Notes under the pieces: model-generated
Told to the model about the DNA's origin: nothing
What the model saw: only the letters and a program-made list of their open reading frames with translations
The model's database searches: none
Source of the DNA: Chloroflexota bacterium
Lineage (GTDB): Bacteria > Chloroflexota > Dormibacteria > Dormibacterales > Dormibacteraceae
Direction of reading: 5' to 3'
Assembly (NCBI GenBank): GCA_005880525.1
Contig: VBFW01000203.1
Location: 1 to 26,793, forward strand
DNA: 26,793 nucleotides
Made by a program: the position numbers and the translations under genes
In this document: piece by piece, positions 25,326 to 26,330 of the stretch
How the letters are laid out: the number at the start of each line of letters is the position of its first letter
Numbering within the stretch: the first letter of the stretch is position 1

Positions 25326-26165
25326 TTGAAGGCCCTGGTGCTCGGCGCGGGGGGCCAGCTTGGCTCGGATCTGGCCCGCCTCCTGCCTGGCGCGGTGGCC
25401 ATGACCCGGGACCAGCTCTCTGTCACTGACGCGGCCGCCGTGCGCGCGGCGCTCGAACGCCACCGCCCCGAGGTCGTCTTCAACTGCGCCGCGTACAACC
25501 CCGTCGACAGGGCAGAGATGGAGCCGGATCAGGCGCTGTCGGTCAATTCCGACGGCGCCTTCAACGCGGCGGTCGCGTGCAGGTCACTTGGCGTCGCGCT
25601 GGTTCATTACTCCACCAACTTCGTTTTCGACGGCCGGCTGGACCGGCCTTACCTCGAGTCAGACCTGGTGGGACCGCTGGGCGCCTACGCCCGATCCAAG
25701 GCCGACGGCGAGCGCCGGGTGCTGGCTGAGCATCCGGCCGCGCTGGTGATCAGGACGGCAGCCCTATTCGGCGACACCGGGTCACGGGCCAAGGGCGGGA
25801 GCTTCCCGGAGCGGATCGTCCGCGCCGCCCGCGAAGGCAAGCCGCTGGCTGTGGTCGCTGACCAGAAGGTGAACCCGACCTACACACGCGACCTGGCGGA
25901 GGCGAGCATCGAGCTGGCAGCGTCCGGCATGGCCGGACTCGTCCATGTCGTGGCCGAGGGATGCTGCGGGTGGGACGAGTTTGCACGCGCTGCGCTGACC
26001 GAGTGCGGAATCGACTGGCCGGTCGAGTCGGTCAGCACAAGCGTCTCGGCACACGTTGCCCAGAGGCCGCTCAATGGCTGCCTTGGGTCTGAGCGTGTGC
26101 AACCGCTGAGGCACTGGGGCGAGGGGCTGAGGGATTGGGCGGCGAGGAGCCGTCCAGGCGCATAA
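25326..26165 (+). CDS. rfbD: dTDP-4-dehydrorhamnose reductase family SDR
   Basis: LVLGAGGQLGSDL, FNCAAYNPVDRAE, HYSTNFVFDG, YARSK (YxxxK), IRTAALFG and DQKVNPTYTRDLA. TTG start. Confidence 0.9.
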   Translation: MKALVLGAGGQLGSDLARLLPGAVAMTRDQLSVTDAAAVRAALERHRPEVVFNCAAYNPVDRAEMEPDQALSVNSDGAFNAAVACRSLGVALVHYSTNFVFDGRLDRPYLESDLVGPLGAYARSKADGERRVLAEHPAALVIRTAALFGDTGSRAKGGSFPERIVRAAREGKPLAVVADQKVNPTYTRDLAEASIELAASGMAGLVHVVAEGCCGWDEFARAALTECGIDWPVESVSTSVSAHVAQRPLNGCLGSERVQPLRHWGEGLRDWAARSRPGA

Positions 26166-26205
26166 AAAAACTCGGGCCGGGCGATTTCTCGACACCGGCA
26201 CCGAG
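26164..26205 (-). terminator. Intrinsic terminator on the minus strand
   Basis: Minus strand CUCGG-U-GCCGG-UGU-CGA-GAAA-UCG-C-CCGGC-CCGAG followed by seven U. Confidence 0.8.
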
Positions 26206-26269
26206 CTTGGCTGCGGGGGGTGAGGTTCTTATTAAGGGAGGCCTAGGGCACGGCTAGTCGCCCGCCTCC
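26164..26269 (-). ncRNA. Candidate independently transcribed small RNA (about 106 nt)
   Basis: TAGACT (26282-26277), N7, then G26269 opens a GGAGGC/GCCUCC hairpin. It is followed by a 31-nt C/U/A-rich linker and a terminator with U7. No credible ORF inside. Confidence 0.6.
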
Positions 26270-26276
26270 AAGTGTC

Positions 26277-26330
26277 AGTCTAGGACCGGATTCGAGCCCG
26301 TAACACGGGTTTTTCTGTTCTTTTTCGACG
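26277..26330 (-). promoter_or_regulatory. Promoter of the candidate sRNA: -10 element plus A-tract (UP-like) region
   Basis: -10 TAGACT. A-tracts GAAAAAGAACAGAAAAA fall at about -41 to -57 from the predicted +1. No clear -35. Confidence 0.5.

Follow-up and report, generated by a model that had tools for sequence, protein, structure and literature searches.

An unannotated candidate small RNA gene with an open C-rich linker, conserved within one family of Dormibacteria

We analyzed a stretch of 26,793 nucleotides (nt), here called the window, from a Chloroflexota bacterium of the Dormibacteraceae (GenBank assembly GCA_005880525.1, contig VBFW01000203.1, positions 1 to 26,793 of the forward strand), focusing on a short minus-strand element that an earlier note, made from the sequence alone, had proposed to be a small RNA (sRNA) gene. 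The element is flanked by two plus-strand genes, encoding RmlD (rfbD/rmlD; PF04321, E 1e-69) and a family-2 glycosyltransferase. The layout described in the note, namely a TAGACT hexamer, a 5' hairpin (HP1), a linker, a GAAA-capped hairpin (P3), a U7 tract and an A-tract at -41 to -57, was confirmed base for base, and the transcription start is presumed to lie at 26269-26270. The features of the locus are the following.

26348..26363, minus strand: upstream conserved block CTTGGCATTTCGAGAG, at about -80 to -95, conserved across genera
26310..26326, minus strand: A-rich tract, UP-element-like, at -41 to -57, with GTCGTCGAAAA..CAGA conserved
26277..26282, minus strand: -10 box TAGACT, followed by 7 nt before hairpin HP1
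26237..26269, minus strand: 5' hairpin HP1, GGAGGC-GGGC...GCCC-UAG-GCCUCC, with a GAGG...CCUC outer stem and a variable inner stem
26206..26236, minus strand: linker CUUAAUAAGAACCUCACCCCCCGCAGCCAAG, 31 nt, unpaired according to fold and comparison
26228-26206, minus strand: near-invariant linker core GAACCUCACCCCCCGCAGCCAAG, 98-100% identical across genera
26227-26215, minus strand: proposed seed AACCUCACCCCCC within the linker
26171..26205, minus strand: P3, bulged terminator hairpin, with its GAAA cap at 26188-26185
26164..26170, minus strand: U7 tract and transcript end, overlapping the TAA stop of rfbD (26163-26165) on the other strand
26163..26233, minus strand: covariance-model match (70.2 bits, E 1.8e-15), the family-defining 3' module
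25326..26165, plus strand: rfbD/rmlD, convergent neighbour, given for context only

The identification of this minus-strand RNA as an unannotated, stand-alone sRNA gene of about 100-106 nt, as suggested in the earlier note, is supported by its single copy, its extreme conservation, the covariation in both hairpins, the asymmetry of the G-U pairs, the -10 box at a fixed distance and the intrinsic terminator, together with the lack of a conserved open reading frame (ORF) and of an Rfam match. The minimum-free-energy structure of the RNA (-45.8 kcal/mol, z = -2.9) reproduced the proposed succession of hairpin, unstructured linker and terminator; none of 200 shuffles folded as well, and the computed unpaired probability of the linker was ~0.9-1.0. 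The claim that there is no minus-strand mRNA here to be terminated also held, given that both neighbours are on the plus strand and that a 151-codon minus-strand ORF spanning the RNA region has no Pfam match. A scan of the window with Rfam 15 returned no match, either at the gathering score or at E <= 10, in agreement with the note's failure to recognise a known family.

The conservation of the element is far above that of the neighbouring gene. Across genera, the linker and the terminator hairpin are 98-100% identical at the DNA level, whereas the identity of RmlD is 52-66% at the protein level. At window positions 26160-26229, comprising P3 and the linker core, relatives belonging to at least 15 other genera show 93-100% identity, and the C-rich core of the linker is almost letter-perfect across more than 20 genera. 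This difference from RmlD, together with the covariation described below, indicates that the module is not a product of chance. Comparison with relatives showed covariation in P3 and in the inner stem of HP1; the unit that is conserved throughout is the linker plus terminator hairpin, and the 5' hairpin, which the earlier note had counted as part of the element, turned out to be the variable part of the family.

The RNA stretch is present in one copy in its own assembly, which is 71% complete. An exact-pattern scan covering ~186,000 species genomes yielded 113 stretches, nearly all of them on contigs titled Candidatus Dormibacterota, Dormibacteraceae or, under older names, Chloroflexi. Using a covariance model, the module was detected in 96 of the 121 genomes of the Dormibacteraceae-level family, mostly in one copy per genome (the family tallies take in three genomes flagged as unpublished, G016, G234 and G272; without these, the count is 93/118, and no conclusion depends on them alone). 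The matches extend over 26/37 genera of the family. Among its high-quality genomes, 39/48 had a match and nine of the 48 had none. In a 151-genome sample of the phylum as defined by GTDB, good matches were obtained only in the Dormibacteraceae-level family; other families gave no convincing match, and the three matches outside the family were marginal (28-30 bits). The module defines a small RNA family that has no counterpart in Rfam and that, in the genomes sampled, is restricted to one family of Dormibacteria.

Two types of the RNA can be distinguished. Type A, to which the window belongs, has a run of six C's, a linker ending in CCAAGC, a short and invariant P3, a U-tract at the 3' end (nearly all type-A loci have a T-run after P3) and a short 5' part; type B has five C's, a linker ending in CCAUGC, a P3 with a longer apical stem, usually no U-tract, and a 5' domain of ~110 nt with multiple helices. 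The promoter of type A is represented by the TAnnnT box, and that of type B by TTGCAT-N17-TAAAAT, ~190 nt upstream. The gene context of type A is rmlD and the glycosyltransferase, with the RNA in most loci tail-to-tail with the former and back-to-back with the latter; that of type B is different. Several type-B genomes carry two to four copies of the module.

Some further features of individual loci were observed. In the type-B RNAs of loci such as L018, L019 and L128 (~190 nt), the multi-helix 5' domain is accompanied by a long-range GGCCCGGGAA/UUCCCGGGCC stem, and a G-run located just 3' of P3 (GCGGGGG, GGGGGUG) could pair with the C-run. These observations on type-B RNAs also take in genomes G207, G224 and G242, and some genera have two to four copies. 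In loci L033, L053, L058, L102, L103 and L122, an extra inverted repeat (CCTCCCCA...TGGGGAGG) lies between the terminator and rmlD.

The covariation of P3 was evaluated family-wide on 54 distinct sequences, with type B providing the variation that is absent from type A. Canonical pairs occupy 94% of the cells, and 8 of the 20 pairs change on both sides; this level of covariation was reached by none of 500 shuffles, and controls obtained by sliding paired in 37-56%. When read in the minus-strand sense, the wobble pairs amount to 14 G-U/U-G versus 0 A-C/C-A, and from this one-sidedness it follows that the helix is selected in the RNA of the window's minus strand. The inner stem of HP1 is compensatory among seven short-form relatives, with GGGC/GCCC, CGGGG/CCCCA, GCCGG/CCGGC and CGGC/GCCG as its variants. 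Type A shows no variation in P3, be it in the bulged U/A, in the UG/CC internal loop or in the GAAA loop; in type B, an A-G mismatch and bulged U's are conserved in this hairpin, its apical stem covarying freely.

Several known identities were considered and rejected. ARAGORN predicted no transfer RNA (tRNA) or transfer-messenger RNA (tmRNA), and Rfam gave nothing on 18 type-B loci and only noise on two type-B RNAs. The signal recognition particle (SRP) RNA is present in 5/5 genomes tested and is encoded elsewhere in this genome, on contig C270 (168 bits). The 6S RNA model (RF00013) matched neither the window nor any of the five genomes, although this model is insensitive (only 5/14 control genomes were matched), and the fold consists of two separate hairpins, not of a long rod with a central bubble. 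The 6C RNA model (RF01066) gave no match even at E <= 10, and the C-run is located in an unpaired linker, not in hairpin loops. A full-text literature search returned no paper in which Dormibacterota and small RNAs are mentioned together.

A protein-coding function was rejected for either strand, since the one-base difference in the length of the C-run (5C/6C) argues against a conserved reading frame on both strands and the frames are inconsistent. On the opposite strand, an ATG is found 3-15 nt after GGUGAGG in 60 of the 80 type-A loci; the resulting ORFs range from 0 to 60 codons and use two different frames across the conserved block, and the window's genus lacks them. In long type-A loci such as L009, L027, L037 and L056-L058, the ATG follows the opposite-strand GGUGAGG by 9-12 nt. 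One clade has an opposite-strand ORF of 7 codons (MRSVIPF-like) ending in the conserved block CCTTTCTGAAGG; this ORF is missing from the window and shows no conservation outside the clade.

The putative promoter elements were compared among the relatives as consensus matches, the starts not having been mapped. In 80 type-A sequences, the -10 column reads TAGACT, TAAACT, TAAAAT, TACACT or cAAACT, so that the A at position 2 and the T at position 6 are kept. The type-B promoter TTGCAT-N17-TAAAAT, a strong match, is on the same strand as the window RNA and its position corresponds to that of the TAnnnT box. Upstream of the type-B genes (e.g. L025, L067 and L083), a perfect palindrome CTTGGAAnnTCCAAG is located ~90-100 nt before the start, with A-tracts between the palindrome and the -35 box, and the type-A block CTTGGCATTTCGAGAG is a degenerate copy of this palindrome. 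Only two such blocks occur in the window's own genome, the second one (C363:6202) lying between a gene for a LuxR-type regulator and a HisKA_3 histidine-kinase gene. The upstream block is presumed to be a transcription-factor site, and its palindrome-like sequence suggests control by a dedicated transcription factor. An alternative interpretation as a promoter for an extracytoplasmic function (ECF) sigma factor, GGAAT-N18-GTT, was dropped, as the type-B loci show a clean palindrome at this position. Within some type-B RNAs, the sequence CTTGGAAnnTCCAAG likewise makes up an internal hairpin.

On the plus strand, the ~150 nt preceding the glycosyltransferase start (26391-26546) are conserved across genera (...GCGTTGCTCCAGCA..CTTGCACA..GATCAGTTCGAA..CGCCTGGCG...) and contain a -10-like tAnnaT box at about 26393-26400; this stretch may be a 5' leader or a regulatory element of the glycan operon. 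The plus-strand hairpin with a U-tract that the earlier note had placed at 26296-26325 is present at 26294-26325, and its T-run is the plus-strand counterpart of the A-rich tract at 26310-26326. Compensatory changes can be observed in this hairpin within the genus (CCCG/CGGG to CCTG/CAGG), and it is absent in other genera. An overlap of the sRNA with the 3' untranslated region (UTR) of rfbD is possible; if the rfbD mRNA ended at this hairpin, its 3' UTR would be fully antisense to the sRNA.

Traces of the locus were also found in metatranscriptomes, in the form of unstranded Logan contigs from four soil RNA libraries of one study, with a depth of 2-4. The four runs hold 69-96% of the words sampled from the locus, and many other studies hold only the conserved part. 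Contigs from three of the libraries are 100% identical to the window, cover 26201-26418 and break at 26229, which is the edge of the module common to many species. Expression of the locus is therefore likely, and a longer precursor is possible.

The succession of a variable 5' hairpin, an invariant open C-rich strand and a terminator matches the layout of chaperone-independent sRNAs that cover G-rich ribosome-binding sites, such as mycobacterial 6C (PMC6486639). No Hfq was found in any of five genomes, and CsrA was found in one of the five. The 16S gene, sought for comparison of the linker with the anti-Shine-Dalgarno sequence, is absent from this assembly. The base-pairing mechanism put forward in the earlier note, in which the linker resembles the anti-Shine-Dalgarno sequence, is plausible. 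According to the model that we favour with moderate confidence, the RNA would be an Hfq-independent, trans-acting sRNA. A sigma-70-type promoter (TAGACT) would drive its transcription on the minus strand, from about 26269 to the U7 tract (26164), with the GAAA-capped bulged hairpin doubling as the intrinsic terminator and a dedicated transcription factor acting through the palindrome-like block ~90 nt upstream. The C-rich linker GAACCUCACCCCCCGCAGCCAAG of the RNA would pair, without Hfq, with G-rich Shine-Dalgarno regions, and this pairing would block binding of the 30S subunit to the mRNAs.

The best candidate target for the seed is in the leader of a histidine-kinase gene. When complements of the linker were searched for in the organism's own genome, GGGGGGUGAGGUU, a 13-nt perfect complement of the seed, was the sole perfect 13-mer outside the RNA gene. 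It sits on the Shine-Dalgarno sequence, 7 nt before the GUG codon of a 765-amino-acid PAS-GAF-PAS histidine kinase (C318:16702-18999), whose leader of ~45 nt is located downstream of a TAAAAT box and which is followed by genes for a single-domain response regulator and a Ser/Thr kinase. Kinase orthologues from seven further genera share the leader CUGCGCACC...CCAGGGGGGG(C/U)GAGGUU, and the leader motif was found in 56/121 family genomes (55/120 without G272, one of those flagged as unpublished), which belong to type-A genera except for a few evident chance matches. Cofolding of the full sRNA with the kinase leader gained -19.8 kcal/mol, as against -8.3 +/- 2.8 kcal/mol with shuffled linkers, of which 0/200 reached this value. 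The gene of an ICMT methyltransferase (C298), which has the best duplex energy in the genome (-37.1), was rejected as a target, its complementarity being lost within the genus as expected of a chance match, and it serves as a negative control for the target search. It can also be observed that the kinase leader is nearly invariant across genera (CUGCGCACCUUCCAUCCCGCCAGGGGGGGCGAGG; C318:16650-16701, orthologues L179-L185), which is unusual for a 5' UTR, whether or not it has any connection with the sRNA.

It is necessary to mention the points that weigh against this model. By duplex energy, the kinase site ranks only ~6th among 181,000 windows genome-wide, and we estimate that roughly one perfect 13-mer per genome would be expected by chance at 67% GC. 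Most genera have a C where the pairing needs a U, which results in a central A-C mismatch with 12 of the 13 positions paired, and, since the whole kinase leader is conserved, the fact that its site is conserved provides no specific support for pairing. Type-B genera appear to have no orthologue of the kinase, and a search for type-B targets by seed complement gave counts equal to those of the reversed-pattern control, and hence no target. The terminator hairpin, bulges included, is as invariant as the seed, which base pairing alone leaves unexplained. As for the transcript itself, the shallow unstranded contigs reach 26418, beyond the proposed start at 26269, and other RNA-library contigs cross the terminator hairpin into rfbD.

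The invariant bulges and loops of P3 point to an additional constraint, for example a partner protein or tertiary contact, and the main rival explanation builds on this: the chief function of the RNA might be to bind a conserved partner, either a protein or a ribonucleoprotein, for which it would be a sponge, scaffold or mimic, with the linker and the bulged GAAA hairpin serving as a platform and pairing being secondary. We consider this unlikely, though it accounts for the fact that the whole 60-nt module is 98-100% identical, including bulges, internal loop and GAAA, far beyond the needs of a terminator, and for the retention of the A-G mismatch and the bulged U's in type-B P3 while the apical stem covaries. 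The five genomes without a match to the 6S model also leave some housekeeping RNA roles without an assigned RNA. However, gene neighbourhood links no partner to the RNA, the contexts of types A and B being different; the two to four copies seen in some genera are more in keeping with sibling regulators than with a housekeeping RNA; nine of the 48 high-quality genomes lack the module; and the shape is not 6S-like, with the SRP RNA encoded elsewhere in the genome. In a more far-reaching proposal, the 60-nt module would lie at the heart of a ribonucleoprotein or global translational regulator specific to this Hfq-less lineage, in which the bulged hairpin would bind a conserved partner, the strand similar to the anti-Shine-Dalgarno sequence would capture G-rich ribosome-binding sites, and the palindrome-binding factor would control the gene, with feedback on the PAS-GAF kinase cluster; this we put forward only as a quite unlikely, speculative possibility.

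The RNA-library contigs bear on two further explanations. The module could be the 3' part of a longer minus-strand transcript beginning at 26418 or further upstream, for example from a TAGTCT box at 26442-26437, the 105-nt form being a second isoform or a processing product. The identical contigs from three libraries and the conservation across genera of 26300-26420 itself speak for this, but the contigs are shallow and unstranded and may represent DNA carry-over or read-through from rfbD, the TAGTCT box, in our reading of the alignment, is not conserved in other genera, and the register of the TAnnnT box at 26282-26277 is conserved, its position matching that of the type-B promoter; we consider a longer transcript improbable. 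It is still harder to reconcile with the data that the hairpin should function primarily for the rfbD mRNA on the plus strand, as a 3'-end or stabilising element or as a bidirectional terminator, with the minus-strand gene being incidental: type-B loci keep the linker and hairpin with no rfbD nearby, the hairpin has no U-tract after it in the plus-strand direction, the G-U pairs occur only in the minus-strand sense, the promoters point the opposite way, and the invariant linker would be left unexplained. This very improbable explanation draws on the position of the hairpin, which abuts the rfbD stop in nearly all type-A loci, on the contigs running from rfbD through the hairpin, and on the plus-strand hairpin with a T-run at 26294-26325 in the window's genus. 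Least probable, to the point of being almost negligible, is a cis-regulatory leader, riboswitch-like element or interspersed repeat in place of an RNA gene. The multi-helix 5' domain of type B (~110 nt) and the G-run after P3, a potential pairing partner of the C-run in the manner of an expression platform, would suit such an element. Membership of a riboswitch or cis-regulatory leader class was nevertheless rejected, as the only gene downstream on the minus strand in the window is the converging rfbD, and the gene downstream of the type-B copies has its own leaderless promoter; a hairpin repeat of the REP or BOX kind was rejected because there is one copy in the organism's own assembly and one in most of the 96 positive genomes.

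The Dormibacteria (candidate division AD3) are a group that is abundant in soil and permafrost and uncultured. The sRNA reading provides a candidate for a family-wide RNA regulator missing from Rfam, with a defined promoter, seed and structure, a candidate target and a candidate operator. The covariance model can be used to annotate metagenomes, and the conserved 60-mer could serve as a probe for Dormibacteria in metatranscriptomes.

In comparison with known elements, the RNA shares with a generic Rho-independent terminator the G+C-rich hairpin followed by U7. Ordinary terminators, however, do not stay letter-perfect from genus to genus in their bulges and loop, nor do they come after an invariant unpaired stretch of 23 nt and a conserved promoter, as is the case for this RNA. 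RsaE/RoxS of Firmicutes and the Hfq-independent sX13 of Xanthomonas use unpaired C-rich motifs to mask G-rich Shine-Dalgarno regions and are strongly conserved across genera. These RNAs have several short C motifs, mostly in loops, unlike the Dormibacteraceae RNA with its single long invariant stretch of 23 nt and its invariant bulged terminator hairpin. No significant Rfam match to RsaE/RoxS or sX13 was obtained, the sole match to sX13 (12.6 bits, E 4.9, in a type-B relative) being noise. The 6C sRNA (B11; RF01066) of Mycobacterium and other Actinobacteria acts without RNA chaperones (PMC6486639). Both RNAs are short, highly conserved, high-GC sRNAs with their own terminator, both carry an unpaired run of six C's, which in 6C pairs with G-rich mRNA sites, and the chaperone independence of 6C has its parallel in the five genomes in which Hfq was not found. 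The two differ in that the C-runs of 6C are in the loops of two hairpins, whereas the Dormibacteraceae RNA has its C-run in a linear linker, with a variable hairpin on one side and the terminator on the other, and also in their hosts, a Dormibacteraceae-level family as opposed to Actinobacteria, with no RF01066 match at E <= 10. If the proposed function is true, the theme of C-rich, chaperone-independent sRNAs represented by 6C, RsaE/RoxS and sX13 would extend to another deep lineage.

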